Source of the DNA: Candidatus Dormiibacterota bacterium
Lineage (GTDB): Bacteria > Chloroflexota > Limnocylindria > P2-11E > CF-107
NCBI GenBank assembly: GCA_035639655.1
Contig: DASQXO010000125.1
Location: forward strand, 1 to 44,212
Direction of reading: 5' to 3'
DNA: 44,212 nt
Shown here: positions 1,160 to 35,547 of the stretch, piece by piece
Layout of the letters: each line of letters begins with the position of its first letter
How positions within the stretch are numbered: position 1 is the stretch's first letter
The notes under the pieces: model-generated
Told to the model about the DNA's origin: nothing
Databases searched by the model: none
What the model saw: the letters and a program-made list of their open reading frames with translations, nothing else
Program-made: the position numbers and the translations under genes

Positions 1160-1167
1160 CGCTCTGA

Positions 1168-5024: not shown

Positions 5025-5031
5025 GCAGTTC

Positions 5032-8381: not shown

Positions 8382-8575
8382 GACGCCGGGTTCAGCTCCT
8401 GCGTGACGTCCGCGGCGTCGGCGTAGTCGCGGCTCGGCAGCGCCGCGAGGGCGGTGATGACGTCCTCGGAAAGCTTCGCTTCCTCGGCGCGGTCGAGGAT
8501 GTCCTCGCGCGACACCGGGTACGACAGGCTGGACAGGAACTGGTCGACGACCACGCTGGACTGCAGCTCTTTCAT
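8378..8575 (-). CDS. DUF2795-like small protein
   Basis: 65-aa ORF from the ATG (complement of 8573-8575): MKELQSSVVVDQFLSSLSYPVSREDILDRAEEAKLSEDVITALAALPSRDYADAADV. It matches my recollection of the DUF2795 pattern (YP.S..dl...A......v...l..lP...Y.s...v). It lies 35 nt downstream of the ligase. Confidence 0.6.
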   Translation of the reverse strand: MKELQSSVVVDQFLSSLSYPVSREDILDRAEEAKLSEDVITALAALPSRDYADAADVTQELNPAS

Positions 8576-8610
8576 GTCCGTCTCTCGGTGCGAAAGCCGT
8601 GCCAGCTCGC

Positions 8611-9681: not shown

Positions 9682-9686
9682 ACGAG

Positions 9687-10880: not shown

Positions 10881-10943
10881 TAGGGCGCAAGGCGGCGGTC
10901 GCCGTCACGTCAAGACGCCCCGAGGCGACGTAGGCTGATCGCG

Positions 10944-15404: not shown

Positions 15405-15489
15405 CGCGCTCCGCGACGACCGCGTGATCCTCGGCCTTCGCCCCGAAAGCGATCGGCGCGTCCGCGCGCACGCGGATAGAGTTTCGATC

Positions 15490-16650: not shown

Positions 16651-16949
16651 CCTGGGACGACGGCGCGGAGCGGCTGCTCGAGGCGCTCCTCCGCATGGTC
16701 CCCGGCACGTTCCGCTCGCTCGCGGAGGGCGCCGCGCGCGTCGAGGCCGAGGGTTTCGCCAGCGAGCGCGGCGCCGCCGCCGTGGAGACGGACGACGTCG
16801 TCCGCGGCTGGATCGAGACCACCCCGGCCGACCAGCGGAACGGGCTTGTGGCCGTGCTCGAGGAGCTCGGCGTCGATCCGGAGGCCTACGCCGACGAGCT
16901 CACCGCCGAGCCGGAGGAAGACGCGGGCGAGGGGCTCGAGGAGGAATGA
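16647..16949 (+). CDS. Small acidic protein, possibly PCP_red-like (BchB C-terminal domain-like)
   Basis: 100-aa ORF whose ATG overlaps the ACAD stop as ATGA. MTWDDGAERLLEALLRMVPGTFRSLAEGAARVEAEGFASERG resembles the W..eAe..L..iP.f.R...... A...G pattern. The tail is acidic. Confidence 0.5.
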   Translation: MTWDDGAERLLEALLRMVPGTFRSLAEGAARVEAEGFASERGAAAVETDDVVRGWIETTPADQRNGLVAVLEELGVDPEAYADELTAEPEEDAGEGLEEE

Positions 16950-17010
16950 GCGTTCGGCTTCCGTACGCATCCCTTGTCCACACCGACCCGGTTCATTTCG
17001 TGCTCACACC

Positions 17011-17045
17011 GGTCGGTTTTCCACCGTTTCGGGTCGGTTTTCCAC
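17011..17045. repeat. Two exact copies of GGTCGGTTTTCCAC, 21 nt apart (third, inverted partial copy at 16982-16990)
   Basis: The exact 14-mer occurs at 17011-17024 and 17032-17045. ACCGACCCG at 16982-16990 is the reverse complement of the CGGGTCGGT core. All lie in the 146-bp gap between two convergent genes. Confidence 0.7.
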
Positions 17046-17095
17046 AATGGGAAAGGAGGCGGGGACCAGCTCGAGCGCTCTGATTCCGTACAGGG

Positions 17096-18250
17096 CTAGG
17101 CGCTCGTCCCGTCTTCCAGGAGACCGCGCGCGATGACCAGACGCTGCATCTCGCTCGTCCCCTCGTAGATCCGGGTGATCCGGGCGTCGCGGTACGCGCG
17201 CTCGATCCAGAGCTCCCTCATGTAGCCCATCCCGCCATGGATCTGGACCGCGGCGTCGGCGACCCGGCCGAGCATCTCGGTCGCGAAGAGCTTCGCCATC
17301 GCCGCGCGCTGCGTCACCCGCTCGTCGCGGTCCGCCCGCGCCGCCGCGTCGTAGGTCATGAGCCGCGCCGCGTGGATCTCGGTGGCGGCATCGGCGAGCA
17401 TCCACTGCACCGCCTGGGCTTCGGCGATCGGCCGGCCGAACTGCCGGCGCCCTTTCGCGTGCTCGAGGCACGCCTCGAGCAGCCGCTGCGCCGCGCCGAC
17501 GCTGTGCGCTGCCAGGCCGATCCGGCCGAACTCGAGCGTCTTGAGCGCGGTCGCGAAGCCGCGACCCTCGTCGCCGATGCGGTTGGCGATCGGCACGCGC
17601 ATGTCGCGGAAGTAGAGCTGCGCGGTCGTCGACCCGTGCAGGCCCATCTTCTCGTCGTTCTTCCCGACCTCGAGGCCCGCCGTGCCGCGCTCGACGACCG
17701 CGGCGGTGATCGCCTTCGCGCCCTTCGCGCGATCGAGCGTGAAGAAGACCACGAACGTGTCCGCGATCGGCGCGTTGGTGATGAACGTCTTCTGCCCGCT
17801 GATGACGTAGTCGCCGCCGTCGCGGCGGCCTGAGGTGGCGAGGCTCGCGGCGTCGCTACCCGATCCCGGCTCGGACAGCGCGTAGGCCCCGAGCTTGCGA
17901 CCGGCGGCGATGTCCACGAGGTAGCGCCGCTTGAGCTCGGGCGAGCCGTCGACGTCGATCGCCGCGCCGCACAGCCCTGCCGATGCGCCGACGACGTTCC
18001 AGAACGCCGCGTTCGAGCGCGAGAGCTGCTCGACCGCGACGACGTAGCCGAGCTTGCCGAGACCGCTGCCGCCGTACTCCTCGGCGAAGGGCACGCCGAA
18101 GAGGCCGACCTGCGCCATCGCGTCGATCAGCGTGCGCGGGATCTCGCTCCGCTCCTCGACCTCGCGCGAGTGTCTCTGCAGCACGTCGTCGGTGAACTCG
18201 CGCACGGTGCGCTGCAGCAGTCGAAGCTCCTCCGGAAGTTCGTGCGTCAC
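17096..18250 (-). CDS. Acyl-CoA dehydrogenase
   Basis: GTG (complement of 18248-18250) gives VTHELPEELRLLQRTVREFTDD. Also YALSEPGSGSDAAS and IYEGTSEMQRLVIAR. The start shares GTGA with the upstream hydrolase stop. Confidence 0.9.
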   Translation of the reverse strand: MTHELPEELRLLQRTVREFTDDVLQRHSREVEERSEIPRTLIDAMAQVGLFGVPFAEEYGGSGLGKLGYVVAVEQLSRSNAAFWNVVGASAGLCGAAIDVDGSPELKRRYLVDIAAGRKLGAYALSEPGSGSDAASLATSGRRDGGDYVISGQKTFITNAPIADTFVVFFTLDRAKGAKAITAAVVERGTAGLEVGKNDEKMGLHGSTTAQLYFRDMRVPIANRIGDEGRGFATALKTLEFGRIGLAAHSVGAAQRLLEACLEHAKGRRQFGRPIAEAQAVQWMLADAATEIHAARLMTYDAAARADRDERVTQRAAMAKLFATEMLGRVADAAVQIHGGMGYMRELWIERAYRDARITRIYEGTSEMQRLVIARGLLEDGTSA

Positions 18251-18936
18251 GTGCGCAGTCCATGGAAGAAACGCTCGAGGCGCTCGTCGAACTCGCGCGG
18301 CCGTTCGAGCATGACCATGTGTCCGGCGCCTTCGATCACGGCCAGCTCGGCGCCGCGGATGCCGCGGACGATCGCCTCGGCGTCGGCGAGGGTGGTCATG
18401 CGATCCTCGGCGCCGGCGAGCACGAGCGTCGGGACGCGCACGCGCTTGAGGTGCGGCGTCGCATCGAACGCCGCGGTCGCCGAGAAGTCGGCGGCGAGCA
18501 CCTTCGGATCGGTGCGCGCCAGGTACGAGCTCGCGCGCTCGACGACCGCCGAGCGCGCGCCGCGCGCGAAACCGCTCGCCGCGAGCCGCTCGACGGCGAC
18601 GTTCGGGTCGCGCGCGACCCGTTCGACGAAACCGTCGGGCACGCGCGGTCGGACGGCCGCGCCGACGAGGACGAGGCCGAGCGGCGCGTGGGCCGCCGCG
18701 ACGGCGAGCGCGACGCCGGCGCCCATGGAGTGACCGATGACGACGGCGCGCGCGACGTCCTGGGTGCGGCGGATCCATTCCGCCATCTCCTCGATCCGCT
18801 GGAGCGGCGGCTCCGTCGATCGACCGTGTCCGGGAAGGTCCGGCGTGGCGACGTCGTAGGCGCCACCGAACGCGAGCCGCTGCTGCACCCATTCGTCGCC
18901 CGACGAGCCTGCGGCGTGGATGAAGACGAGTCTCAC
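18247..18936 (-). CDS. Alpha/beta-fold hydrolase
   Basis: GTG start gives VRLVFIHAAGSSGDEW. Nucleophile elbow GHSMGAG and C-terminal GAGHMVMLERP. The start shares GTGA with the thioesterase stop. Confidence 0.8.
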   Translation of the reverse strand: MRLVFIHAAGSSGDEWVQQRLAFGGAYDVATPDLPGHGRSTEPPLQRIEEMAEWIRRTQDVARAVVIGHSMGAGVALAVAAAHAPLGLVLVGAAVRPRVPDGFVERVARDPNVAVERLAASGFARGARSAVVERASSYLARTDPKVLAADFSATAAFDATPHLKRVRVPTLVLAGAEDRMTTLADAEAIVRGIRGAELAVIEGAGHMVMLERPREFDERLERFFHGLRT

Positions 18937-19355
18937 CGTCGGAGCCGCTCCGCGAGCGCGGCAGGAATGCGCGCCGGACGTCCCGTGGCGCGGTCGATGA
19001 CGACCTGCGCGGTATCGACCTGCGCGCAGACGGTCCCATCCGCCTTCGTGATGAGGTACTCGAACCGCCACGAGGAATGCCGCACCTCGCCGCATCTCAC
19101 GCGGATGTCGAACTCGTCCGGATAGCGAAGCGGCGCGAGGTAGCGGACCGACGCGCTCGCGATGGTGAAGTCGAGACCGCGCTCGAGCAGGTCGCGGCGG
19201 TAGTCGAAGCCGCAATGCTGCAGGTACGCGAAGCGCCCGACCTCGGCGTAGAGCAGGTAATTCGCGTAGTACACGACGCCCTGCATGTCCGTCTCGCCGA
19301 AACGCACGCGCTGACGGTACGCGAACGGGAACTCGGCGGGCGTCGGGGCGGGCAC
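18933..19355 (-). CDS. Acyl-CoA thioesterase (4HBT/YbgC hot-dog fold)
   Basis: RVRFGETDMQGVVYYANYLLYAEV is a typical 4HBT N-terminal block. I prefer the GTG at 19355 (140 aa) because TATCCT lies 8 nt upstream. The track start at 19442 would collide with the divergent yggT-like start. Confidence 0.75.
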   Translation of the reverse strand: MPAPTPAEFPFAYRQRVRFGETDMQGVVYYANYLLYAEVGRFAYLQHCGFDYRRDLLERGLDFTIASASVRYLAPLRYPDEFDIRVRCGEVRHSSWRFEYLITKADGTVCAQVDTAQVVIDRATGRPARIPAALAERLRR

Positions 19356-19440
19356 CGCGCGCGAGGATACGGCGGCGTCTCGCGTGGCACGGCCGGTGCA
19401 GGCAAGCGAGGGCGGATTCAATCCCTTCCGGGAGGTATCC

Positions 19441-19821
19441 ATGGCTCACGAACCGACACGCAGGGTCCGCGTCGAGGAGGATCGCGTCGAGAGGCCGGTG
19501 GTGCGCGAGCGCCGGACGGCGTACGACGGCGCGTACGCGACGCGGGTCATCCTGCAGCTCGTCTATCTGCTGTTCGGGATCTTCGAGGTCCTCCTGCTTA
19601 TCCGCTTCATCATGAAGCTCGGCAACGCGAACACCGCGAACGGCGTCATCGCCGCGCTGTACGGCGTGACGGAGCCGCTCGTGCGGCCGTTCTACGGGAT
19701 CTTCCCGCAGCCGCCGGCCGGGTCGATCGAGATCGCGACGCTGCTCGCGATCGTGTTCCTCGTGCTCGTGGAGGCGCTCATCGTCGCGATCATTCGCGCG
19801 CTCACGCCGCGGTACTACTAG
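19441..19821 (+). CDS. YggT-family membrane protein
   Basis: ATG 19441 is preceded by GGAGG (19431-19435). Two TM segments flank a GVTEPLVRPFYGIFP block typical of YggT. Confidence 0.7.
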   Translation: MAHEPTRRVRVEEDRVERPVVRERRTAYDGAYATRVILQLVYLLFGIFEVLLLIRFIMKLGNANTANGVIAALYGVTEPLVRPFYGIFPQPPAGSIEIATLLAIVFLVLVEALIVAIIRALTPRYY

Positions 19822-23073: not shown

Positions 23074-23436
23074 ATGCCGTACCACGAACTGAAGGTCCCG
23101 CGCGGCCTCACGCGGAAGTGGGAGGTCGTCATCGAGGACGGACGCGAGGACGCCGCGGCGAAGCCGCGCACGGCCGGCGACGTGAAGCGCGATCACCGCG
23201 TGCTGCGTCACATCGCCGAGGGCGAGCTGCGGGCGGTCCCGCTCCTCGCCACCGGCGCGACGCTGCGTCGGGGCGAGCGCTACCTCGACCTGCACGATCC
23301 GGCGCGCGGCGAGTTCGTCGGCGACGGCTACGAACGGGTGCGTCCGGGGCGGGGCATCCTCGCGAAGAGCGAGACGCCGCCGACGGTGTGGCGCGCGATC
23401 CTGAGCGCGGCCGACGGCGTCACACGCGAGCGCTGA
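23074..23436 (+). CDS. Hypothetical protein (120 aa)
   Basis: High-GC3 ORF with GGAG 6 nt upstream of the ATG. I recognise no domain. Its 3' end overlaps the convergent ligase gene by 17 nt. Confidence 0.5.
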   Translation: MPYHELKVPRGLTRKWEVVIEDGREDAAAKPRTAGDVKRDHRVLRHIAEGELRAVPLLATGATLRRGERYLDLHDPARGEFVGDGYERVRPGRGILAKSETPPTVWRAILSAADGVTRER

Positions 23437-25357
23437 AGCTTCGGATCTCCTCGACCGCGGCGGGATTCTCGAGCGATGAGAGATCGCCGAGGTCGTCCTT
23501 GCCGAGGAACGCGCCGCGGATCACACGCCGCAGCACCTTCGCGTTGCGCGTCTTCGGCAGCTGCGTGACGAAACGCACCGACTCCGGACGGAGCGGCTTG
23601 CCCAGCAGCTCCGCCACCTTGTCCTGGACCTCGCGCGCGAGCGCATCGCTCGGCGTCGCGTTCGGCCGCAGCACGCAGAACACGACGATCCCCTCGCCCT
23701 TGATCTCATGCGGCACGCCGACGGCCGCGGCCTCGAGGACCGACGGATGCGCGACGGCGGCGGACTCGACCTCCGCGGGACCGACCCGCTTCCCGGCGAC
23801 CTTCAGCGTGTCGTCGCTGCGGCCCTCGATGTACCAGAAGCCCTCGCCGTCGATCCGCGCCCAATCTCCGTGCACCCAGACGTCGGGAATGCGCGACCAG
23901 TACGTCTCGCGGTAGCGCTCCGGGTCTCTCCAGAACCCCCTCGTCATGCCCGGCCACGGCTTGCGGATGACGAGCTCGCCGACGGCGCCACGGACGGAGC
24001 GGCCGCGCTCGTCGACGACATCGACGTCCATCCCGGGCACCGGCGCCGAGAACGAGCACGGCTTGATCGGCGTCCAGGTCGTGCAACCGAGGATGCCGCC
24101 GGCGACCTCCGTGCCGCCGGAGTAGTTGATGATCGGCGCGCGGCGTCCGCCGGCGTTGTCGAAGTACCACCACCACGGCTCGGGATTCCACGGCTCGCCG
24201 GTGGAGCCAAGGACGAAGAGCGACGAGCGATCGTGGGCGCGGACCGGTGCCTCACCGGAGCGCATGAGCGCGCGGATCGCGGTCGGCGAGATCCCGAGGT
24301 GCGTGACGCGGTGGCGTTCGACCATCGCCCACACGCGCGACGGGTCGGGGAAGTCCGGCGTCCCGTCATACAGCACGATCGTCGCGCCGAGGATGAGTCC
24401 GCCGGCGATGAGCCAGGGCCCCATCATCCAGCCGAGATCGGTGAACCACCACATCGCGTCGCCGGCCTGCAGGTCGAAGCAGTGCGCCATGTCCTGCGCT
24501 GCCTTCACCGGGAACCCGCCGTGCACGTGCACCGCACCCTTCGGCCGGCCGGTCGTCCCGGACGTGTAGATGACCATGTACGGATCCTCGGCCGCGGTGT
24601 CGGCGAAGGTCTCGTCGCCGCCGATGCCGGCGGCAATCACGTCGTCCCACCACACATCGCGTCCCGGTCGCAGGCGCACGTCGCGTCCGGTTCGCTTGGC
24701 GACGATCACGCGCTTCACCGAGGGGGCGCCCTCGGCAGCCGCGTCCGCGGTCTCCTTCATCGGCACCACCTGCCCGCGCCGGTAGAAGCCGTCGGCGGTG
24801 ATGAGGACGCTCGCCTCGGCATCGCGGAGCCGCCCGGCGATCGCGTCGGCGGCGTAGCCGGAGAAGATCGGCGTGTAGATCGCGCCGATCGCGGAGACCG
24901 CGAGCGTGGCGACGGCGCACTCCGGGCCGAGCGGCATGAAGATCCCGACGCGCTCGCCCGCGCGCACGCCGATCGCGCGCAAGCCAGCCGCGAGCCGGCG
25001 CACCTCCGAAGCGAGATCGGCGTACGTCAGACGGCGCGTCGCGCCTTCCTCGCCCTCCCACAGGATCGCGGTGCGACGCGGATCGTGGCGGAGCGCGCTC
25101 GCGACGTAGTTCAGGCGACCGCCGATCCACCACGTCGTCCACGGCATCCCGCGGCTCGGGTCGAGCACGCGCTCGTACGGCATGCGCCACACGAGGCCGA
25201 GGTCCCGGTCGACGGCGCGCCAGAATCCGTCGGCGTCCTCGACGCTCCAGCGCAGGAGCGCGTCGAAGTCGCGGTGCCCGTTCGCCTCGGCGAAGCGACG
25301 CAGCCGGCTGCGCTCGAGATAGTGATCGCTCGGGATCCATGCGGCGCGCTCGGGCAC
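23420..25357 (-). CDS. AMP-forming acyl-CoA synthetase, acetoacetyl-CoA synthetase (AacS)/Acs-like
   Basis: GTG at 25357 gives VPERAAWIPSDHYLERSRLRRFAEANG...LLRWSVEDADGFWRAV, an AacS-like N-terminus. AMP motif YTSGTTGRPKG and A10 motif LPKTRNAKVLRR. The 919-aa track ORF extension is rejected. Confidence 0.85.
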   Translation of the reverse strand: MPERAAWIPSDHYLERSRLRRFAEANGHRDFDALLRWSVEDADGFWRAVDRDLGLVWRMPYERVLDPSRGMPWTTWWIGGRLNYVASALRHDPRRTAILWEGEEGATRRLTYADLASEVRRLAAGLRAIGVRAGERVGIFMPLGPECAVATLAVSAIGAIYTPIFSGYAADAIAGRLRDAEASVLITADGFYRRGQVVPMKETADAAAEGAPSVKRVIVAKRTGRDVRLRPGRDVWWDDVIAAGIGGDETFADTAAEDPYMVIYTSGTTGRPKGAVHVHGGFPVKAAQDMAHCFDLQAGDAMWWFTDLGWMMGPWLIAGGLILGATIVLYDGTPDFPDPSRVWAMVERHRVTHLGISPTAIRALMRSGEAPVRAHDRSSLFVLGSTGEPWNPEPWWWYFDNAGGRRAPIINYSGGTEVAGGILGCTTWTPIKPCSFSAPVPGMDVDVVDERGRSVRGAVGELVIRKPWPGMTRGFWRDPERYRETYWSRIPDVWVHGDWARIDGEGFWYIEGRSDDTLKVAGKRVGPAEVESAAVAHPSVLEAAAVGVPHEIKGEGIVVFCVLRPNATPSDALAREVQDKVAELLGKPLRPESVRFVTQLPKTRNAKVLRRVIRGAFLGKDDLGDLSSLENPAAVEEIRSFSARV

Positions 25358-25383
25358 GGAAGCGATGCTATTACCGGCGCGCC

Positions 25384-26082
25384 TCAGGCGAGGTTGAGCA
25401 GGATCGCGGCCGTCACGATGGCGACGACGGCCGCCGCGATGAGCAGCGCGGGGATGAGGTAGAAGAGCGTCGCCGCGACGATGAGGATCGTCACCGCGCG
25501 GCTCGGCACGACGGCGTAGTAGGCGCGGATGCCGCGGTAGTACAGGACGCCGAGCCAGAGCACGAGCGCGAAGGTGATGATCCGGCCGACGACCGCGAGC
25601 GGAGAGAGCGGGTCGGCCTCGAAGGCGAACGTGGAGAGGCCGGATGCGATGAGCGCGAGCGCCGTGATGTACGCGGCGTAGACGTTGAAGCGCCCGAAGG
25701 GGCGGCCGGCGGCCGACATGCGCGCGGCGGCGTGCACCGCGGATGCACCGAGGAGCCAGGCGAGGATCGGCCCGATCGCGGTGACGAGCAGGACGGCGGT
25801 CCAGGCCTGCTCGACGAGGTACACGACGACAGCCGCGCGAGCCGTTCCGAGCGTGTCCAGTAGGAGCGTCACGGCCGGCGCGCGCTGCGGTCCGTACACG
25901 AGGTCCGAGACCGTGAACACGGTGGCGAACCGCGTCGTGTCGAGCGCCGCGACCGCGCACGCGATCGCGATCGCGGCGAATCCGATGATGAGCCGCCCCT
26001 CGCCGATGACCGCGGGCACGGCCGCGCCCGGATGCACTACGAGTCCGGCGAAGAGTGAGAGCTGCCGCCGCAGCGAGCTCAC
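25384..26082 (-). CDS. Yip1-domain-like polytopic membrane protein
   Basis: 232 aa from a GTG that shares GTGA with the HDAC stop. About five TM spans, with an N-terminal LSLFAGLVVHPGAAVPAV segment. The family call comes from overall pattern only. Confidence 0.5.
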   Translation of the reverse strand: MSSLRRQLSLFAGLVVHPGAAVPAVIGEGRLIIGFAAIAIACAVAALDTTRFATVFTVSDLVYGPQRAPAVTLLLDTLGTARAAVVVYLVEQAWTAVLLVTAIGPILAWLLGASAVHAAARMSAAGRPFGRFNVYAAYITALALIASGLSTFAFEADPLSPLAVVGRIITFALVLWLGVLYYRGIRAYYAVVPSRAVTILIVAATLFYLIPALLIAAAVVAIVTAAILLNLA

Positions 26083-27158
26083 GCCGCGAACGATGCCGCG
26101 AGCGCCGCGTCGGCAGAGCGGCGCGCCGCCTCGTCGAGCACCCCGCGATCGCGCCCTTGCGCCCGCGGCGGATCGGCATCGTGTAGCTCGGCTGGGATCT
26201 CGGCGTCGAGCATGACGAGGTACGCGATCGACCACGCCCGGCGCACCGCGTCGACGTCGTATCCGCCGCCGCCGAGCGCGATCCACGGCAGGCCCAGCGA
26301 GGCGAAGGCGCGGTAGCAGCGCTCGTAGCCGTGCGTCGACAGCGCGAGCTGCGCGATCGGGCACTCGAAGTACGTGTCGAACCCGCCCTGTGTCACGAGG
26401 ACGTCCGGCGCGAACGCGCGAACGAGCGGCGGCACGACGGTGTCGAACGCGATCGCGTACGCGTCGTCATCCGTCTCCGGCATGAGCGCGACGTTGACGC
26501 TGTAGCCCGCGCCGCGACCCGTGCCCCGCTCCTGCGGCCGTCCGGTCCCCGGGAAGAACCACGGCGCGAACTCGTGCAGGGAGATCGTGAGCGCGCGGTC
26601 GTCGTCGTAGAACGCGGCCTGCACGCCGTCGCCGTGGTGGGCGTCGATGTCGACGTACGCGACGCGCTTCCCGCCGCGCACGAGCTGGGCGACCACGATC
26701 GCGGGGTCGTTGTAGACGCAGAAGCCGCTCGCGCGATCGCGCATCGCGTGGTGCAGGCCGCCCGATCCGTTGAACGCCACGTCCGCGGTGCCGGAGGTCA
26801 CGGCCTCGAGGCAGACGAGCGAGGTCCCGACGACGGTCGCCGAGTCGTCGTGCATGTTCGGCCACGGCGGCGTGTCGCTCCAGGTGATGCGATCGCCCCA
26901 CTCTTCCGGCCGAAGGGCCGGCGGATCCTCGCTGAAGAGCTTCACGCGCCGCACGTACTCGGTCGAATGCACGAGCGCGAGCTCCTCGTCGGACGCGAGA
27001 CGTCCGTCGAGGACCCGCGCGTTCGGACGCGTGAAGGCACCGATCCGCTGGAGTGTCTCGTACACGAGCCGGTAGCGGTAGGGCTTCAGCGGATGGTCCG
27101 GGCGCATGACGTACTGCGCGACACGGGGATGCCAGCCGAACGCGGCGATCCGCCTCAC
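26079..27158 (-). CDS. Histone-deacetylase-fold enzyme (AcuC / acetoin utilisation deacetylase-like)
   Basis: GGLHHAMRDRASGFCVYND and the zinc-ligand block DIDAHHGDGVQAAFYDD. GTG start shares GTGA with the upstream membrane-protein stop. Confidence 0.88.
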   Translation of the reverse strand: MRRIAAFGWHPRVAQYVMRPDHPLKPYRYRLVYETLQRIGAFTRPNARVLDGRLASDEELALVHSTEYVRRVKLFSEDPPALRPEEWGDRITWSDTPPWPNMHDDSATVVGTSLVCLEAVTSGTADVAFNGSGGLHHAMRDRASGFCVYNDPAIVVAQLVRGGKRVAYVDIDAHHGDGVQAAFYDDDRALTISLHEFAPWFFPGTGRPQERGTGRGAGYSVNVALMPETDDDAYAIAFDTVVPPLVRAFAPDVLVTQGGFDTYFECPIAQLALSTHGYERCYRAFASLGLPWIALGGGGYDVDAVRRAWSIAYLVMLDAEIPAELHDADPPRAQGRDRGVLDEAARRSADAALAASFAA

Positions 27159-28351
27159 GCGAGGGCGATCGCGAGACCGGTGACGAGAACGCCGACGGTC
27201 GCGATGGCGACCGGCCCGAGGATCGGCACGTACTCGGTGTCGAAGTACTCCCGCGTGAACACCATGCAGAGGTGGAGGGGCGAGAGCATCACGCCCGCGA
27301 ACCCGGCGGCGTAAGCGAACGCCAGCAGCCGGAGGTCCACGCCCCCGCCGATCGCGAGCAGCAGTGGAAACGTCAGTCCGACGAACGCCGTCTCGAGCGC
27401 CGTGACGAAGCCGACCACGAGCGGGACGACGAACGCGACGGCGAGGAGCGGGACGCCGGCGCCCTGCAGGAGCGCGGGAATGCTCGTCACCGCACCGGAT
27501 GCGGCGAGGACATCCTTGAAGACGAGGACGCCGAGCACCATCGTCGCGATGCGGAGCGTCGCCGGCGAGCGGAGCACCCGCGCCACGTCGCCGAGCGGCA
27601 CCCGCGCGGCGAGGACGACGGCCGTCGCGGCGACGGCGAGCGCGAGCGCGACGTCGACGTGGAGGACCACCACGGCGACGAGCACGGCGAGGATCGGCAC
27701 GAGGCCGGGCGCGAGGTCGGCGAGGTGGCCGCGCATCCCGCGCTCAGCGGGCGCCCGCCCGGTCGTGCGCACCTGCGGGAACGCGACGACTGCCCCGGCC
27801 GCGAGCGCGGCGACCGTGAGCGGCAGATTCGCGACGATGACGCTCGAGATCGGCACGGCCGCGACCGCGCTCGCGAGGACGACGCCGGCGTACACCGGCA
27901 CGCTGTAGTTCCACACGTGCCGGAACCAGTAGTTCGCGAAGGAGCGCACCGTCGGCGTCGCCGTGGTGGATGCAGCCACCTCGTCCACCAGCGGGGCCGA
28001 GAAGCGCGCCCCGCCGGCCGACGGGAGGAAGCCGATGAGCGCGGGCAGCGCGGCCATCACGAGGCGCTCGTCGCGGACGAGACCGAGCAGTCCCGCCGAC
28101 AGCCGGCGCAGCGCGCCCCACTCGCGCAGCGCGTGCTCGAGCACGACGATCGCGACGAGCGCGATGGTGAGCTGCCACGTCGTCCATGTCGTCAGCGTCC
28201 CGCCGACCGTGCTCGCGACGAGCTGCGGCGGCATGGCGAACGCGAGCGCGAGCAGCGCGCTTCCGACGAGCATCACGGCGCCGAGGTTGAAGCGGCGCGC
28301 GATGAGCGCGAGAACGACGGCGAAGACGAGCGCGAGCTTCAGCGCGTCCAA
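27155..28351 (-). CDS. Polytopic membrane protein (~10-12 TM), DUF401/ion-transporter-superfamily-like permease
   Basis: Only the C-terminal ~398 aa of the 704-aa track ORF are hydrophobic and coding-like. My preferred start is TTG at 28351 (LDALKLALVFAVVLAL...), which overlaps the URO-D-like gene by 13 nt. An alternative is GTG/ATG at 28276/28273. Confidence 0.55.
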   Translation of the reverse strand: MDALKLALVFAVVLALIARRFNLGAVMLVGSALLALAFAMPPQLVASTVGGTLTTWTTWQLTIALVAIVVLEHALREWGALRRLSAGLLGLVRDERLVMAALPALIGFLPSAGGARFSAPLVDEVAASTTATPTVRSFANYWFRHVWNYSVPVYAGVVLASAVAAVPISSVIVANLPLTVAALAAGAVVAFPQVRTTGRAPAERGMRGHLADLAPGLVPILAVLVAVVVLHVDVALALAVAATAVVLAARVPLGDVARVLRSPATLRIATMVLGVLVFKDVLAASGAVTSIPALLQGAGVPLLAVAFVVPLVVGFVTALETAFVGLTFPLLLAIGGGVDLRLLAFAYAAGFAGVMLSPLHLCMVFTREYFDTEYVPILGPVAIATVGVLVTGLAIALA

Positions 28352-29343
28352 GAGGCGGTCGACGCGGCGAGCAGCGCGCGCGCGCGGTCGATGCTCGCAT
28401 CGCGCGAGCCGATCGGGATCGTGCAGGCGCCCGCGGCGATCCACCGGCGCGGTGCCTGCGCGGCGAGCCAGTCGACCTCGGCTCGCAGGTGCGCGTCGTC
28501 TCGTCCGGCGAACGCCTCGTCCGAGAAGCCGCCGACGCCGACCCGGTCGCGCGCCTGCGCGAGGAAGACGGACGGGCTCGGGTTGCCTCGCGCGTGGACG
28601 TTCCACGACACCGCCGCGACCGGATAGTCGGACAGCTCGAGGACGCGCGCCTCGGCGCCGCACACGTGCACGACGTTGAACGGAGCCGCGCTCACGGCGT
28701 CGAGGATGCGGAGGTCGAACGGGCGACCGAACTCGGCGTACTCGTCGTCGCGGAGGACGTCGCGCTGCGCCCACACCGTCGTGGCGAGGAAGATCCCGTC
28801 GGCGCCGGCGGCCACGCAGGCCTGCGCGAAGCGGGCGAACGTCCACGTGACGGCGTCGAGGGCGCCGAGCACGTCGGTCGGGCGCGCACGCAGGTCCGCG
28901 ACCAGACGCTCGCGGCCGGCGAGCCGCTCGCAGATCGCGAGCGGCGTGAAGATCGTCATCACGAGCGGCACGTCGGGCAGCGCCTCGCGCGCGAGCTCGA
29001 GCCCCTCGAGCATCTCGTCGAAGACGCCGCCCTCCGGCGGCACCGGCTGGACGTCGCGCCACCCGGCCGAGTCGACGACGGCGTAGCGCTCGACCTCGGG
29101 ATGCTCGTCGCCGCCGTAGCGGTACCGCGTGCCCCACGGCTCGGCGTGATAGTGCGCGCGCGGGTTGTACTTCAACAGGTCGAGGTCGTGCGCCTCGGTG
29201 AAGTCCACCAGCCGGCGCGCGAGCCGCTGCGCCTGTCCCGGTTGCTCTTCGGCGTAGAAGTGACGCCACACCGCGAACGCCGGCCGGTCGAGGACCTCGC
29301 CGCGCATCGCCGCCGCCACGCGCTGTCGCGCCGTCGCGGTCAT
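28339..29343 (-). CDS. Uroporphyrinogen-decarboxylase (URO-D) family protein (decarboxylase / MtaA-CmuA-like)
   Basis: 334-aa ORF whose overall pattern fits the URO-D TIM barrel (N-terminal R.A..GE..DR.P.W, FLATTVWA, VVHVCG). I cannot assign a subfamily. Confidence 0.6.
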   Translation of the reverse strand: MTATARQRVAAAMRGEVLDRPAFAVWRHFYAEEQPGQAQRLARRLVDFTEAHDLDLLKYNPRAHYHAEPWGTRYRYGGDEHPEVERYAVVDSAGWRDVQPVPPEGGVFDEMLEGLELAREALPDVPLVMTIFTPLAICERLAGRERLVADLRARPTDVLGALDAVTWTFARFAQACVAAGADGIFLATTVWAQRDVLRDDEYAEFGRPFDLRILDAVSAAPFNVVHVCGAEARVLELSDYPVAAVSWNVHARGNPSPSVFLAQARDRVGVGGFSDEAFAGRDDAHLRAEVDWLAAQAPRRWIAAGACTIPIGSRDASIDRARALLAASTASWTR

Positions 29344-29382: not shown

Positions 29383-30204
29383 CTAGACGGCCATCTTCGC
29401 GCGGATCGCCTCGTGATGGCGGTAGCCCACGAGCCGCGCGCTCGTCATCTCGAACGCGTCGATGTCGGTGATGCGCTCGTCGAGCTCGAGCCGCGGCAGC
29501 GGGAGCGGGTCGCGGTCGAGCTGCTCGCGCACCTGCTCGAAGTGCGAGTGATAGACGTGCGCGTCGCCGAGCGTGTGCACGAACTCGCCCGCCGCGAGCC
29601 CGGTCACCTGCGCGACCATGTGCAGCAGCAGCGCGTAGGACGAGATGTTGAACGGGACGCCGAGGAACAGGTCGCACGAGCGCTGGTACATCTGCAGCGA
29701 CAGCGTGCCGTTCGCGACGAAGAACTGGAAGAACGCGTGGCACGCCGGGAGCGCCATCTCGTTCAGTTCGCCCGGATTCCACGCGCTCACGACGATCCGG
29801 CGGCTGCTCGGATCCTCGCGGATGAGCCGGATCGCCTCGGCGAGCTGGTCTACCTCGCGTCCGTCCGGCGCGCGCCAGCGCCGCCACTGCACCCCGTAGA
29901 TGCGGCCGACGTCGCCCTCGAATCGGGCCCTGGGCTTCCAGTAATCGGCGTTCGCGTTCGCGTCCCAGATCCGCGCCCCAAGCCGCCGGAGGTCGTTCAC
30001 GTCGGAGCTCCCCGACACGAACCAGAGCAGCTCCGCCTTGACCGTCTCGAACGACACGCGCTTCGTGGTCACGATCGGAAATCCGTCCGACATGGCGAAG
30101 CGCATCTGCAGCCCGAAGAGCGCGCGCGTTCCGGTCCCGGTCCGATCGGGGCGGTCCACCCCGCGCTCCATCACCGCGCGGAGCACGTCGAGGTACTGCC
30201 TCAC
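29383..30204 (-). CDS. thyA: Thymidylate synthase
   Basis: MRQYLDVLRAVMERG, DRTGTGT, catalytic LPACHAFFQF, and DLFLGVPFNISSYALL. Confidence 0.95.
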   Translation of the reverse strand: MRQYLDVLRAVMERGVDRPDRTGTGTRALFGLQMRFAMSDGFPIVTTKRVSFETVKAELLWFVSGSSDVNDLRRLGARIWDANANADYWKPRARFEGDVGRIYGVQWRRWRAPDGREVDQLAEAIRLIREDPSSRRIVVSAWNPGELNEMALPACHAFFQFFVANGTLSLQMYQRSCDLFLGVPFNISSYALLLHMVAQVTGLAAGEFVHTLGDAHVYHSHFEQVREQLDRDPLPLPRLELDERITDIDAFEMTSARLVGYRHHEAIRAKMAV

Positions 30205-30213: not shown

Positions 30214-30768
30214 CTACGTCGCGTCGCGGCGCTCGTGCTCGCGCTCCCACTCGTCGCGCAGCACCTCGCCGATCCACATGTCGTGCCAGGCGCCGTCGCT
30301 CCAGTGCTCCTCCCGATAGAAACCGACGGTGCGGTAGCCGGCCTTTTCGAGGGCGCGCTGGCTGCCGACGTTGTCTACCACGGCGGTCGTACGAAGCTTG
30401 TGCAGGTTGAGCTCGCGGAACGCGAACGCTGTGCGCAGCTGCATCGCCTCCGTCGCCACGCCGCGGCGCCAGTACGACCGGTCGCCGATCATGATCCCGG
30501 TGACTGCGTGCGCGCAGATCCAGTCGATCGCGTGGATACCGGTGGCGCCGACCGCGCGATTCTCCACCTCGATCACCCACCACACGTCGTCCTTCGAGTC
30601 CGCGATCCGCTTGAAGAACTCCTCCTCCTCATGGAGCGCGGGCGGCGTACGGCGCAGCATGTACCGAGTGACCTCGACGTCCGCGAGCCACTCGATGAAG
30701 ACCTTCGTCTCGTCGGGCTTGGGAGGTCGTAGCGTCACGAGCTTGCCGCGGAGGATCGGACCCAGCAC
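30214..30768 (-). CDS. GNAT-family N-acetyltransferase (RimJ/RimL-like)
   Basis: GTG 30768 has GATACT 7 nt upstream. Acetyl-CoA loop YWRRGVATEA, then NVGSQRALEKAGY. Confidence 0.8.
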   Translation of the reverse strand: MLGPILRGKLVTLRPPKPDETKVFIEWLADVEVTRYMLRRTPPALHEEEEFFKRIADSKDDVWWVIEVENRAVGATGIHAIDWICAHAVTGIMIGDRSYWRRGVATEAMQLRTAFAFRELNLHKLRTTAVVDNVGSQRALEKAGYRTVGFYREEHWSDGAWHDMWIGEVLRDEWEREHERRDAT

Positions 30769-33626: not shown

Positions 33627-34619
33627 ATGAGCGCCTTTCGCCCGCTGCGAGCGACCGATCCGGTGCTCCGGCGAGGCGACTTCATCGCTCCGGTGATCAG
33701 CGAGATCAAGAAGGTCATCGTCGGCCAGGACTACCTCATCAACCGCCTGCTGATCGCGCTGCTCTGCAACGGCCACCTGCTCATCGAAGGCGTCCCGGGT
33801 CTGGCCAAGACGCTCGCGGTCAAGACCCTCGCGGACACGATCGACGCGGGGTTCCGGCGGATCCAATTCACGCCGGACATGCTGCCGGCGGATCTGAACG
33901 GAACGATGATCTACAACCCCGCCGACCAGACGTTCAACCCGCGGCTGGGGCCGATCTTCACCGACATCCTGCTCGCCGACGAGATCAACCGCGCGCCGCC
34001 AAAGGTGCAGAGCGCGCTCCTCGAGGCGATGCAGGAGCGCCAGGTGTCGATCGGCGGCGAAACGCACGCGCTCTCGGACATCTTCATGGTGCTCGCGACA
34101 CAGAACCCGATCGAGCACGAGGGCACGTATCGCTTGCCCGAGGCGCAGGTCGACCGGTTCATGATGAAGGTCGTCGTCGGCTACCCGTCAGCCGATGAGG
34201 AGCGGATCATCATGGACCGCCAGACGATCGAGCCGCCCGCGCACGTCCGGCGGATCACCTCGCGTGACGCGATCCTCGACGGGCGCGAGGCCGTGCGCCA
34301 GGTGCGCATGGAGGACGCCCTTCGCGACTACGTCGTGAACCTCGTCCAGGCGACGCGCGAGCCGAAGCGGTTCAAGCTCGACGACCTCGCCCCGCTCATC
34401 GGTTACGGCGTCTCGCCGCGCGCGACGATCTACATCTCGCTCGCCGCGCGGGCGAGCGCGTTCCTCGAGGGACGCGACTACGTCCTGCCGGACGATGTGA
34501 AGGCCGTCGCGCTCGACGTCATGCGACACCGCCTGATCGTCACGTACGAGGCGGAGGCCGAGGAGGTAACGCCGGAGTCCGTGGTGACGCGGGTGGTCGA
34601 CGGCGTCCCCGTACCCTAG
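33627..34619 (+). CDS. MoxR-family AAA+ ATPase
   Basis: Walker A GVPGLAKT, Walker B LLADEINRAPPKVQSALLEAMQE, and LATQNPIEHEGTYRLPEAQVDRF. Confidence 0.92.
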   Translation: MSAFRPLRATDPVLRRGDFIAPVISEIKKVIVGQDYLINRLLIALLCNGHLLIEGVPGLAKTLAVKTLADTIDAGFRRIQFTPDMLPADLNGTMIYNPADQTFNPRLGPIFTDILLADEINRAPPKVQSALLEAMQERQVSIGGETHALSDIFMVLATQNPIEHEGTYRLPEAQVDRFMMKVVVGYPSADEERIIMDRQTIEPPAHVRRITSRDAILDGREAVRQVRMEDALRDYVVNLVQATREPKRFKLDDLAPLIGYGVSPRATIYISLAARASAFLEGRDYVLPDDVKAVALDVMRHRLIVTYEAEAEEVTPESVVTRVVDGVPVP

Positions 34620-34626
34620 GCGGAAG

Positions 34627-35547
34627 ATGTTCGGCTGGCGTCGCGGGACGCGCGAGGCGGCGATCGACACCGCGGCGCCGTCCGACGCCCTGCACCAGAT
34701 CCACAACCTGGAGGTCCGCGCCCGCGTCCTCGCCGACGAGATGCTCCTCGGCACGTACCGCAGCGTCTTCCGCGGCTCCGGCCTGGAGTTCGAGGAGGTG
34801 CGCGAGTACGAGCAGGGCGACGACGTTCGGAGCATCGACTGGAACGTGACCGCGCGGATGGGCTCGCCCTTCGTCAAGAAGTACCGCGAGGATCGAGAGC
34901 TCGCGATCCTCCTGGCGGTCGACGTGTCGTCGTCGACCTGGTTCGGCAGCGCCGGGCGAAGCAAGCGCGAGCTCGCGGTGGAGGTCGGGACGCTCCTCGC
35001 CGCGGTGGCGCTGCGGAACAGCGACCGCGTCGGCCTGCTGCTCTTCTCCGACCGGGTCGAGCGCTACCTGCCGCCGCGCTCCGGGCGCGAGCACCTGCTG
35101 CGCGTGATCCGCGAGCTCGTCGCGGCCCCACCGCTGCGCGCGCGCACGGACATCGCCGAGGCCGCGCGGTTCATGCGCAACGTGACGAAGAAGCACGCGG
35201 TCATCTTCTTGCTCAGCGACTTCCTGGACGTCGAGTTCACCGCACCGCTCCGGCGGCTCGGGCAGAAGCACGACGTGATCGCGCTCACGCTGAACGATCC
35301 GCGCGAGCTCGACCTTCCGGCGGTGGGCGTCATCGCGCTCGAGGACGCCGAGACGGGCGGCGTGCGGGTCGTGGATACCGACGTCGACGGCGTTCGCGAG
35401 ACCTACGGGCGAGTCGCGCGCGAGCGGCGCGTCGAGCGCCGCCGCGCTTTCGCGCGCATGGCGATCGACGTTGCCGACCTCTCGACCGATCGGCCGTTCG
35501 TGCCGGTGCTGCAGGCGCTGTTCAACGCGCGCTCGAGGCGCCATTGA
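34627..35547 (+). CDS. DUF58 domain protein (MoxR partner)
   Basis: GTYRSVFRGSGLEFEEVREYEQGDDVRSIDWNVTARMGSPFVKKY is the hallmark DUF58 block. A degenerate VWA-like core follows. Confidence 0.85.
   Translation: MFGWRRGTREAAIDTAAPSDALHQIHNLEVRARVLADEMLLGTYRSVFRGSGLEFEEVREYEQGDDVRSIDWNVTARMGSPFVKKYREDRELAILLAVDVSSSTWFGSAGRSKRELAVEVGTLLAAVALRNSDRVGLLLFSDRVERYLPPRSGREHLLRVIRELVAAPPLRARTDIAEAARFMRNVTKKHAVIFLLSDFLDVEFTAPLRRLGQKHDVIALTLNDPRELDLPAVGVIALEDAETGGVRVVDTDVDGVRETYGRVARERRVERRRAFARMAIDVADLSTDRPFVPVLQALFNARSRRH

Follow-up and report, generated by a model that had tools for sequence, protein, structure and literature searches.

A probable lineage-specific mosaic operon around an HDAC–Yip1 gene pair in a bacterium of the Chloroflexota

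The gene string and its junctions

The stretch of DNA analysed here (the window; 44,212 nucleotides of contig DASQXO010000125.1, Candidatus Dormiibacterota bacterium, an uncultured soil organism of high GC content) carries eight co-directional genes, encoding a LuxR-like protein, a GNAT acetyltransferase, thymidylate synthase (thyA), a UROD-like protein, a DUF401 protein, an HDAC-family deacylase, a Yip1-like membrane protein and an acyl-CoA ligase (Table 1). An initial annotation had described the last five as one translationally coupled chain. Direct reading of the sequence bore out all five minus-strand ORFs (23420-29343) and their junctions of -13, -4, -4 and +26 nt. The TGA stop of the UROD-like gene (28341-28339) and the TTG start of the DUF401 gene (28351) define the 13-nt overlap, the sequence GTGA is common to the DUF401 and HDAC genes (27158-27155) and again to the HDAC and Yip1-like genes (26082-26079), and the Yip1-like stop (25386-25384) is separated by 26 nt from the ligase GTG (25357). 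An independent gene caller gave identical product lengths on two ENA contigs of the same DNA. The TTG start, which an alternative start would replace at the cost of the coupling, is upheld: the Pfam and TIGR00529 profiles both align residue 6 of the protein to profile position 5, and its N-terminal 25 residues agree with the family consensus.

While the overlaps stand, the chain starts further upstream than the UROD-like gene: three genes precede it on the same strand, the LuxR-like gene first, with gaps of 38 nt (LuxR-like to GNAT), 9 nt (GNAT to thyA) and 39 nt (thyA to UROD-like). The GNAT gene, two genes upstream of the UROD-like gene, had been overlooked. All eight genes are probably co-transcribed, with the five as the distal part of the predicted transcript. 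The convergent ORF that closes the string is also called in L001 and L170 and has no Pfam or NCBIfam match. Elsewhere in the window, 8 of 23 same-strand junctions overlap (P = 0.12 for at least 3 of 4); overlapping junctions, 4-nt overlaps included, are the default packing of this genome, and the five-gene string is no exception.

Table 1. Genes of the string and the ORF that closes it, in the order of transcription of the string
Feature	Position	Strand	Match or remark
LuxR/sigma-70-region-4-type HTH protein, 503 aa	30807..32318	-	weak C-terminal PF08281, PF00196; first of string
GNAT N-acetyltransferase (Acetyltransf_3)	30214..30768	-	PF13302, E 2e-26
Thymidylate synthase, thyA	29383..30204	-	PF00303, E 3e-106
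UROD/MtaA-like TIM-barrel protein, 334 aa	28339..29343	-	PF01208, E 5e-21
DUF401/TIGR00529 polytopic membrane protein, 398 aa	27155..28351	-	PF04165, E 1e-50; TTG start
Class I/AcuC-like Zn-dependent HDAC-family deacylase, 359 aa	26079..27158	-	PF00850 (Hist_deacetyl), E 9e-78
Yip1-like all-helical membrane protein, 232 aa	25384..26082	-	PF04893, weak, E 0.0014
Acs/AacS-family AMP-forming acyl-CoA ligase, 645 aa	23420..25357	-	ACAS_N + AMP-binding + AMP-binding_C
ORF, 120 aa, family not assigned	23074..23436	+	convergent; 3' end overlaps ligase stop region by 17 nt

The encoded proteins

Pfam profile searches agreed with the five family assignments first proposed, the Yip1 match being weak. 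For the UROD-like protein, MtaA and CmuA matches in NCBIfam are also weak and far under cut-off, and MtaA (4ay7) is the sole PDB sequence match, with HVCG aligned to HICG. A His226-x-Cys228...Cys307 triad is present, each residue at least 99% conserved among 120 homologues. The AF2 model (pLDDT 94.5) is closest in fold to MtaA (4ay7/4ay8, TM 0.77-0.78), then to HemE and then to MetE. Its function is probably that of a Zn-dependent alkyl/methyl-transferase-type enzyme, not of a decarboxylase in the haem pathway.

The DUF401 protein scores 224.6 bits against TIGR00529, under the 378.4 cut-off, and several of its homologues also match CitMHS (PF03600) and GntP (PF02447); it is likely a permease of the ion-transporter-superfamily type. 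Among 80 DUF401 loci from other species, the neighbours are heterogeneous housekeeping genes, and none is a UROD-like, Yip1-like or ligase gene. In Desulfuromonadales, a DUF401 gene lies in the same co-directional string as a homologue of the HDAC, a second and independent case of HDAC-DUF401 proximity.

The best PDB matches of the HDAC-family protein are HDAC2, HDAC1, Clr6, RPD3, HDAC8 and HDAC3. Its HH, DxH, D and GGGGY motifs align with the solved class I relatives, all catalytic residues are present, and these are invariant among its relatives. The proposed HDAC/AcuC-like assignment is thereby confirmed; a polyamine amidohydrolase type is ruled out by the class I best relatives and the class I/AcuC motifs. 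Its Yip1-like neighbour scores 19 bits against PF04893 (cut-off 28.6), and a precomputed match to that profile is carried by most of its homologues, which form 25 clusters in all. The AF2 model is all-helical (pLDDT 88) and has no fold match in the PDB.

The ligase scores 621.6/611.5 bits against the Acs models of NCBIfam and 471/407.5 against those of AacS, each under its own cut-off; in the PDB, Acs 8rpk (498 bits) and S. enterica Acs (478) precede AacS 4wd1 (323). Relative to Acs, GWVTG is changed to GWMMG, GSVGEP to GSTGEP, DTWWQTE to NYSGGTE and PKTRSGK to PKTRNAK, and all four altered motifs are conserved in 8 orthologues. The Trp wall that restricts Acs to acetate is absent, and a reading of the pocket as enlarged is supported by published work (PMC10455477, PMC11584562). 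The alignment confirms the A10 lysine noted earlier, which lies in a PX4AK context instead of the usual PX4GK, with Ala at -1 in every orthologue. Judged by sequence, the ligase represents an uncharacterised intermediate subfamily of the Acs/AacS family and is as yet unclassified within it.

The GNAT protein has weak NCBIfam similarity to small-molecule N-acetyltransferases (PseH, SpeG) and is not AcuA- or Pat-like. As had been said of the chain, AcuA, Pat and AcuB are absent, and this holds for the whole annotated window.

Related loci

The loci compared all come from one broad lineage and represent few independent evolutionary events, and their contigs are short, such that a gene "missing" from a locus may lie elsewhere in the genome. 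The full five-gene layout is limited to L001/L002 (the same DNA), L170 and L003/L171, a narrow uncultured soil clade; co-occurrence of the five, which would speak against a common system were it peculiar to one genome, extends no further than this. L170 (about 80% identity) has the same -13/-4/-4 overlaps, while L003 and L171 have a CDF transporter gene added between the HDAC and Yip1-like genes and gaps of 23-41 nt instead of some overlaps.

Eleven second-tier loci are without UROD-like and DUF401 genes. The HDAC is 54-57% identical there, and the ligase 73-75% in the five with a complete ligase gene. DHFR lies directly upstream of the HDAC gene in these loci (identified as such in L097 and L090; not seen only in L102), so that the order in sister lineages is thyA–folA–HDAC–Yip1–(DUF983, AlkZ or nothing)–ligase. 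The UROD-like and DUF401 genes fill the slot held there by folA, and the window has no DHFR gene anywhere. Depending on the clade, this slot contains folA or a UROD-like gene, the latter with or without DUF401. The UROD-DUF401 linkage is not kept in the P0160 contig and L172, which have UROD-HDAC-Yip1 without DUF401; DUF401 is facultative at the locus.

The slot between the Yip1-like and ligase genes is similarly variable: it may be empty or contain DUF983, DUF5667 or an AlkZ-like glycosylase. An ABM-domain gene comes after the Yip1-like gene on one contig, and no ligase is seen up to the contig end. In L095 and the P0025 contig the order is HDAC-Yip1-DUF983-flavin reductase-YggT, without a ligase; some relatives have other genes in place of the ligase. 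The HDAC and ligase genes lie within about 1-3 kb of each other on the same strand in every one of the 11 related loci with enough downstream sequence, except L095. The Yip1-like gene adjoins the HDAC gene in every related locus, save for the CDF insertion in L003 and L171. This is the most constant adjacency of the locus, with the Yip1-like gene 3' of the HDAC gene and usually overlapping it. Of the HDAC-Yip1-ligase linkage first proposed, the HDAC-Yip1 part holds in the related loci, but in some of them the ligase is separated by unrelated genes or absent. We know of no described precedent for an HDAC-family gene paired with a Yip1-like gene.

These variations are set in a conserved chromosomal backbone, LuxR..GNAT..thyA..HDAC-Yip1..ligase..YggT-4HBT-ACAD. 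The GNAT gene is found upstream in L003, L090, L091, L097, L098, L116 and L170, and the LuxR-like protein (45-78% identical) has a counterpart at the corresponding place in L003, L090, L091, L097 and L098. Among 68 HDAC loci at 54% identity or below, of which 39 have at least 2.5 kb downstream, none has a Yip1-like or ligase neighbour.

Possible functions of the string

Do the five proteins form one machine? The initial annotation envisaged a membrane-associated, translationally and stoichiometrically coupled module, controlled by lysine deacylation, that would take up a short (keto)acid and activate it with CoA. The overlaps at three of four junctions, the recurrence of the same layout in L170, and the presence of a permease-like protein, an enlarged-pocket ligase and a deacylase are consistent with such a module. 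However, overlaps are ordinary in this genome and lost in L003 and L171; the UROD-like, DUF401 and ligase genes are each dispensable in relatives; DUF401 has no such partners elsewhere; and the string tolerates unrelated genes (CDF, AlkZ-like, DUF983, DUF5667, ABM). The model is largely contradicted by this independent gain, loss and replacement, and we regard it as very improbable.

An AcuC-type pair is a better candidate, though still an unlikely one. Here the HDAC would deacylate the A10 lysine of the ligase and thereby reactivate it, the GNAT protein would write the mark, and the remaining three proteins would be bystanders or modulators. The intact class I/AcuC-like active site, the proximity of HDAC and ligase genes across related loci, the conserved GNAT gene in the same string or neighbourhood, and the grouping of AcuC with class I and its co-evolution with AcsA (PMC11532494) argue for this reading. 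Yet HDAC-Yip1 is kept without the ligase in L095 and the P0025 contig, inserted genes separate HDAC from ligase elsewhere, their adjacency is not seen outside the lineage (0 of 68 loci), the GNAT is of the wrong type and AcuB is absent. Because the whole region is syntenic, the HDAC–ligase linkage is no stronger than background. All ANL enzymes have the A10 lysine, and its retention therefore says nothing in favour of regulation; the PX4GK motif, important for acetylation in Pat substrate studies, has Ala in place of its -1 Gly in this ligase.

A third reading draws on the UROD tree, in which a 21-leaf clade of cassette-type proteins is separate from a larger one of 94 leaves. The five members examined in the larger clade all lie in peptidoglycan-recycling operons (GH3-AnmK-MurQ-YdjC), the gene directly following that of a YdjC-type sugar deacetylase in four, with a PIG-L deacetylase gene called nearby in two; we know of no description of this context for the MtaA/UROD family. 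The string might thus serve in salvage of an N-acylated, possibly cell-wall-derived compound, imported by DUF401, deacylated by the HDAC and processed by the UROD/MtaA-like enzyme, with the ligase activating the released acid. Class I HDACs are characterised as protein deacetylases, which argues against this route, as do the second-tier loci with HDAC-Yip1-ligase alone, the dispensability of DUF401 even alongside a UROD-like gene, the lack of an identifiable substrate, and the lack of a sugar kinase, etherase or glycosidase in the annotated window. On the other side, the cassette-clade UROD-like gene neighbours a non-homologous deacetylase gene, resembling the pairing in these NagZ-AnmK-MurQ operons, the ligase pocket appears enlarged, and small-molecule amidohydrolases exist within the HDAC family (PMC11532494). 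On balance, salvage seems improbable.

Because related genomes gain, lose or replace these genes independently, we favour, with moderate confidence, a lineage-specific mosaic operon around the conserved HDAC–Yip1 pair over a dedicated five-component system. In such an operon the HDAC would be a lysine (or small-molecule) deacylase working at or with the Yip1-like membrane protein; the ligase may feed the downstream acyl-CoA genes by activating a C3-C5 acid or a keto-acid, larger in either case than acetate; the UROD-like protein would be a Zn-thiolate alkyl-transfer enzyme recruited from the peptidoglycan-recycling paralogue clade; and DUF401 would be an independent anion-type permease. The products would have a common transcript, but one complex or a single pathway is not expected. 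Some observations pull the other way. The HDAC-Yip1-ligase order is kept down to 54% (HDAC) and 31% (Yip1) identity, and in its clade the UROD-like gene always has HDAC or DUF401 as its immediate downstream neighbour; for both patterns a functional cause is an alternative to inherited synteny. The Desulfuromonadales arrangement must be treated as coincidence under the mosaic reading.

Comparison with known systems

In Bacillus subtilis, the GNAT AcuA acetylates AcsA at Lys549, and the class I-like deacetylase AcuC reactivates the enzyme. The window likewise has a class I/AcuC-like deacylase near an Acs-family ligase with an A10 lysine, and a GNAT nearby, but neither an AcuA-type GNAT nor AcuB. 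The acsA and acuABC operons are divergent, whereas the window genes are co-directional, with the Yip1-like gene (and sometimes unrelated genes) in between. The window ligase also lacks the acetate-specific Trp wall and has PX4AK instead of PX4GK, and its linkage to HDAC is restricted to one lineage and lost in some members. With Acs (S. enterica 1PG4/2P2F; 8rpk) and AacS/KBC (Streptomyces lividans 4wd1) it shares full-length architecture and the complete set of ANL core motifs. Overall it lies nearer to Acs, yet its pocket resembles those of AacS or medium-chain enzymes: V310/T311/V386/W414 of S. enterica Acs are replaced by M/M/T/G, and acetate specificity is therefore not expected.

The UROD-like protein shares the TIM-barrel fold (TM 0.77) of the methylcobamide:thiol methyltransferases MtaA, MtbA and CmuA (Methanosarcina mazei MtaA, 4ay7; UROD/MetE superfamily), and its H-x-C motif and distal Cys align with a spacing that resembles the MtaA zinc triad. 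Identity to MtaA is 20%, however, with NCBIfam scores far under cut-off, the window has no corrinoid protein or MT1 partner, and the host is no methanogen. HemE belongs to the same Pfam family and has the same overall fold (TM 0.70-0.82), but identity is 12-17% and no haem-biosynthesis genes are near; HemE is metal-free and needs no His/Cys/Cys triad, which the UROD-like protein conserves. Finally, the Yip1-like protein is small, polytopic and all-helical with Yip1 profile similarity, as are bacterial Yip1-domain membrane proteins such as B. subtilis YknW. It differs from these in its very weak profile match, in the lack of an adjoining ABC exporter and in its constant pairing with an HDAC-family gene.

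Organization of the gene string

The five minus-strand open reading frames that the initial annotation described as a coupled chain are present exactly as it stated, and its four junctions (three overlaps and one short gap; see the table) are confirmed by direct reading of the sequence, which is about 70% G+C across the window. An independent gene caller, applied to two ENA soil-metagenome contigs carrying the same DNA, gave the same five product lengths. The TTG start of the DUF401 gene is unusual, and it is supported by family profiles that align from residue 6 and by agreement of the first 25 residues with the family consensus. All five family labels also hold in profile searches, with some refinements.

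The chain as first drawn stopped short, with three further same-strand genes lying upstream of the UROD-like gene. Two of these, the GNAT and LuxR/sigma-70-region-4 genes, keep their synteny across the lineage. Beyond the ligase gene lie two convergent reading frames, which match no Pfam or NCBIfam family; both are conserved and were also called in L001 (a contig with the same DNA) and in the related locus L170.

Coordinates of the gene string, of other genes in the window and of features in comparison loci
Sequence	Feature	Position	Strand	Remarks
Window	LuxR/sigma-70-region-4 protein, 503 aa	30807-32318	minus	heads co-directional string; 38-nt gap
Window	GNAT, Acetyltransf_3 type	30214-30768	minus	9-nt gap to thyA; weakly like PseH, SpeG, ArsN1
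Window	thyA	29383-30204	minus	39-nt gap to UROD-like gene
Window	UROD-like	28339-29343	minus	TGA at 28341-28339
Window	DUF401	27155-28351	minus	TTG at 28351; 13-nt overlap with UROD-like gene
Window	HDAC	26079-27158	minus	GTGA 27158-27155 common with DUF401 gene
Window	Yip1-like	25384-26082	minus	GTGA 26082-26079 common with HDAC gene
Window	Ligase	23420-25357	minus	GTG at 25357, 26 nt past Yip1-like stop
Window	ORF, 120 aa	23074-23436	plus	convergent with ligase gene, overlapping its 3' end by 17 nt
Window	ORF, 235 aa	22283-22990	plus	convergent with ligase gene
Window	Acyl-CoA metabolic neighbourhood	1168-4451, 10884-13201, 15424-19442		HMGL-like, aconitase-family, isocitrate/isopropylmalate dehydrogenase-family, thiolase, two acyl-CoA dehydrogenases (ACADs), DUF2621, alpha/beta hydrolase, 4HBT thioesterase
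Window	NHEJ-type repair genes	7317-9942		LigD primase-polymerase domain gene and convergent ATP-dependent DNA ligase gene
Window	Bat aerotolerance-operon type cluster	33627-39261		MoxR AAA+ ATPase, DUF58, BatD-like, VWA/BatA, VWA+TPR; 4-nt overlaps
Window	prfA (RF-1), DUF1385, ribosomal protein genes L31, L27, L21	39270-42097		prfA and DUF1385 gene overlap by 8 nt; suitable markers for taxonomic placement
L003	CDF gene (cation efflux, zinc-transporter type)	9093-10004		between HDAC and Yip1; 4-nt overlaps on both sides
L171	CDF gene (cation efflux, zinc-transporter type)	6269-7180		between HDAC and Yip1; 4-nt overlaps on both sides
L073	Histidine kinase, HDAC, unknown of 280-300 aa, TPR, unknown, response regulator, DUF401	4429-11203		one co-directional string
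L086	Apparent recycling operon with UROD homologue	1-9901
L087	Apparent recycling operon with UROD homologue	914-8984
L088	Apparent recycling operon with UROD homologue	175-9891
L169	Apparent recycling operon with UROD homologue	1206-10894

How much weight can such packing bear? Outside the chain, 8 of the 23 same-strand junctions in the whole window overlap, seven of them by 4 nt, and given this background three overlaps in four junctions have P = 0.12. The coupling of the five genes is real, yet their overlaps do not single them out as a set. In compact high-GC genomes unrelated genes come to be joined by GTGA/ATGA overlaps and in co-directional strings, so tight coupling alone defines no system, and the main value of the finding is as a caution against reading systems from gene packing in such genomes. 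An Rfam scan of 22-33 kb (E<=0.1) returned no element, and hence no riboswitch or leader; a search of 22.9-32.6 kb for sigma-70-like promoters and intrinsic terminators, which is uninformative for this phylum, found neither pattern.

The encoded proteins

The UROD-like protein matches PF01208 at 75.5 bits. Its NCBIfam matches include no HemE model, only MtaA/CmuA-type models, and it does not reach family-level scores there (TIGR01463, 31.9 bits against a cut-off of 235.4; NF004889, 64.3 against 244). Among solved structures its sequence has a single relative, MtaA, a methylcobalamin:CoM methyltransferase whose HICG aligns with HVCG in the UROD-like protein; the HICG-type motif of MtaA binds zinc. 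Residues H226, C228 and C307, a His-x-Cys...Cys triad as in MtaA/CmuA, are at least 99% conserved among 120 UROD-like homologues. The AF2 model (pLDDT 94.5) ranks MtaA first by fold (TM 0.77-0.78), followed by HemE decarboxylases and then MetE; structural identity to HemE is 12-17%. The conserved triad and this ranking led us to reject a canonical HemE. By its solved relative, NCBIfam matches, triad and fold ranking, the protein is better called a UROD/MtaA-superfamily member with a probable zinc triad than a decarboxylase. The fully annotated window holds no B12-binding protein and no corrinoid or MT1 partner.

The DUF401 protein is a full-length match to PF04165 (173 bits, cut-off 24, residues 6-385) and scores 224.6 bits against TIGR00529, under the equivalog cut-off of 378.4. 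Matches of several relatives to two permease profiles, CitMHS and GntP, suggest that it is a secondary transporter of anion type. A PDB sequence search gave no usable match, and a literature search found incidental mentions of DUF401 only.

The best PDB matches of the HDAC protein are class I enzymes (HDAC1/2/3/8, RPD3 and Clr6), with HDAC6 only about 5 bits behind, and the catalytic residues are complete (HH, D..H, D, GGGGY). In a classification of bacterial enzymes AcuC clusters with class I and polyamine deacetylases form a separate cluster (PMC11532494). Judged by its similarity to the solved class I enzymes and by that grouping of AcuC, the protein is a predicted class I/AcuC-type zinc deacetylase. 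The initial annotation had named membership among the acetylpolyamine amidohydrolases, together with inactivity on the ligase, as an outcome that would count against it; none of these amidohydrolases (cluster 4 of PMC11532494) is among the best 60 PDB matches, which comprise class I HDACs and HDAC6, and this is moderate evidence against such membership, and the polyamine-deacetylase reading was rejected on the class I-like similarity.

The Yip1-like protein is a fast-evolving, all-helical membrane protein that matches PF04893 weakly (19 bits, Pfam gathering threshold 28.6); precomputed PF04893 matches occur in 15 of its 25 homologue clusters, which are all that can be detected. No solved structural relative emerged: a PDB sequence search gave no usable match, and Foldseek with the model gave none at E<=0.001.

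All NCBIfam ligase models score the ligase below their cut-offs, both those for acetate-CoA ligase (TIGR02188, 611.5 bits against 724.95; NF001208, 621.6 against 657) and those for acetoacetate-CoA ligase (TIGR01217, 407.5 against 520.9; NF002937, 471 against 639). Against PDB entries it scores 498 and 478 bits for Acs and 323 bits for AacS, and by overall similarity it is nearer to Acs. Residues V310, T311, V386 and W414 of the S. enterica Acs pocket are replaced by M, M, T and G, and PKTRSGK of Acs becomes PKTRNAK, so that the motif is PX4AK, not PX4GK. The Trp wall restricts the Acs pocket to acetate (PMC10455477, PMC11584562). With the acetate-pocket residues changed, acetate specificity is unlikely, and the canonical Acs reading was rejected on these residues and on the replacement of the Trp wall by Gly. 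A pocket of this kind is compatible with the AacS family, but overall similarity to AacS is lower than to Acs. The subfamily motifs GWMMGPW, GSTGEPWNP, NYSGGTE (no Trp wall) and LPKTRNAK are all kept in eight orthologues (loci L003, L089, L090, L096-L098, L170 and L171), and PX4AK is found in the window and in eight of eight. This well-conserved, Acs/AacS-intermediate ligase subfamily is a lead in its own right.

Variation of the string among related loci

Within the lineage, locus L170 (about 80% identity) has the layout and overlaps of the window. Loci L003 and L171 (65-80% identity) have the order thyA-UROD-DUF401-HDAC-CDF-Yip1-ligase, with some overlaps replaced by gaps of 23-41 nt. The inserted CDF gene of this sub-clade is of zinc-transporter type, and the HDAC and the UROD-like protein are both predicted zinc enzymes. 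Synteny in the same three loci extends to the acyl-CoA metabolic neighbourhood downstream of the ligase.

With the HDAC as anchor, a metagenome scan analysed by tblastn yielded eleven sister loci with an HDAC 54-57% identical to that of the window. Their ligase is 73-75% identical wherever fully read and their Yip1 31-40%, and the order is LuxR..GNAT..beta-lactamase-like-thyA-folA-HDAC-Yip1-(DUF983, AlkZ-like glycosylase or nothing)-ligase..YggT-4HBT-ACAD. None of the eleven has a UROD-like or DUF401 gene. No DHFR gene is present anywhere in the 44-kb window, though thyA is, so that the UROD-like and DUF401 genes occupy the exact folA position of the sister lineages, between thyA and HDAC. Other relatives differ again: locus L095 and contig P0025 carry HDAC-Yip1-DUF983-flavin reductase-YggT without the ligase, contig P0160 and locus L172 carry UROD-HDAC-Yip1 without DUF401, and contig P0019 carries HDAC-Yip1-DUF5667-ligase. 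HDAC-Yip1 is the most constant adjacency across all of these, interrupted solely by the CDF insertion. These loci also preserve the flanking LuxR, GNAT, thyA, 4HBT and ACAD genes, so the linkage of HDAC and ligase is no stronger than the regional background synteny.

Outside the lineage, species-representative genomes were scanned with an alignment of DUF401, which gave 80 loci (32-45% identity; Nitrospirota, Desulfuromonadales, Actinomycetota and Chloroflexota), in none of which does a UROD-like, Yip1-like or Acs-family gene lie within 10 kb. The neighbours there include TonB, a response regulator, XerC/D-type recombinase, DJ-1, OmpA, GGDEF, RtcB and YchF, and a general metabolic partner for DUF401, whether UROD-DUF401 or DUF401-ligase, was rejected on their heterogeneity across 80 species. 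Likewise, no Yip1-like or ligase neighbour was found at 68 HDAC loci of at most 54% identity, 39 of which have at least 2.5 kb downstream; the nearest outgroup HDAC locus, L099, has unrelated neighbours. In eight loci, mostly annotated as Desulfuromonadales, an HDAC homologue lies 3-9 kb upstream of DUF401, a second and independent proximity of the two families that is probably coincidence. Identity in Desulfuromonadales-type loci (L073, L052, L058, L063, L065, L075, L081, L083 and L142) is 40-44% for the HDAC homologue and 34-37% for DUF401. The protein of about 280 aa that follows their HDAC has no Pfam family and offered no functional clue.

The initial annotation had proposed that the five proteins form one coupled uptake/activation module under lysine-deacylation control. 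This is largely contradicted, and we regard it as highly improbable, because the components vary independently among relatives and because DUF401 and HDAC occur without such partners outside the lineage. The best-supported reading, which we favour with some reserve, is that the string is a long and probably co-transcribed mosaic of separable units. One unit would be the HDAC-Yip1 pair. A second would be the Trp-less Acs-family ligase, functionally nearer to the acyl-CoA genes beyond it (the 4HBT thioesterase, hydrolase, two ACADs and thiolase), and a third the UROD-like gene, which is facultative, takes the place of folA and may or may not be accompanied by DUF401.

Could the HDAC nevertheless control the ligase in the manner of AcuC? 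Such control fits a class I/AcuC-type HDAC with intact catalytic residues, but we consider it unlikely: the ligase has PX4AK in place of PX4GK, the GNAT of the string is not of AcuA type, AcuB is absent, genes have been inserted between HDAC and ligase, some relatives have lost the ligase, and the two genes are not linked beyond the lineage. The first unit of the mosaic is a lead in itself: in one soil lineage, a gene for a Yip1-like membrane protein constantly accompanies that of an HDAC-family deacylase.

Origin of the UROD-like gene

In a neighbour-joining tree the 120 UROD-like homologues fall into two unmixed clades, one of 21 leaves with every copy found adjoining HDAC or DUF401 and one of 94 leaves with the remainder. 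Several proteins of the larger clade are labelled Candidatus Limnocylindria, which suggests that the source of the window may itself be a Limnocylindria-like member of the Chloroflexota. Neighbourhoods were considered for five of its members, four looked up directly and the fifth in the same 90% cluster as one of these, and all five lie in an operon of the order GH3-GH3-beta-lactamase-like-AnmK-BadF-type kinase-MurQ(SIS)-YdjC-UROD-GHL10, apparently for peptidoglycan or amino-sugar recycling. UROD homologues from such operons at L086, L087, L088 and L169 are 52-62% identical to the UROD-like protein. The two-clade tree and the recycling context of the larger clade suggest that the copy in the string may be a relocated paralogue.

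A deacetylase lies near the UROD-like gene in both clades: YdjC, directly upstream in most operons of the larger clade, and in the smaller one HDAC, either adjacent or separated by DUF401. This is the main support for a minority reading in which the genes serve salvage of an N-acylated compound, to which we give little credence. A fuller version seems improbable to us: HDAC-Yip1 would be an undescribed membrane-tethered zinc deacylase module that, in the clade of the window, has recruited an MtaA-like zinc enzyme (derived from a peptidoglycan-recycling paralogue, with HDAC functionally displacing a YdjC-type deacetylase) and an IT-type permease, and that acts with the Trp-less ligase in salvage of an N-acylated envelope-derived compound. 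The larger clade deserves attention for its own sake, as a UROD/MtaA-like putative zinc enzyme family in NagZ-AnmK-MurQ-YdjC operons could point to an undescribed step of amino-sugar recycling in Chloroflexota. Searching the literature for UROD-family proteins associated with MurQ/AnmK turned up no paper on such an association, nor one that places a UROD/MtaA-family enzyme in peptidoglycan or amino-sugar recycling.

Comparison with known systems

Among the closest described systems is the acuABC/AcsA switch, and the string differs from it in both regulators and target. The fully annotated window contains no AcuA- or Pat-type acetyltransferase, no AcuB and no CBS/ACT protein, the sole GNAT being the one next to thyA. 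The switch targets an acetate-specific Acs with PX4GK, whereas the ligase of the window has PX4AK and is unlikely to be acetate-specific. The proteins of the string all belong to known superfamilies, and their arrangement is an operon variant specific to the lineage.
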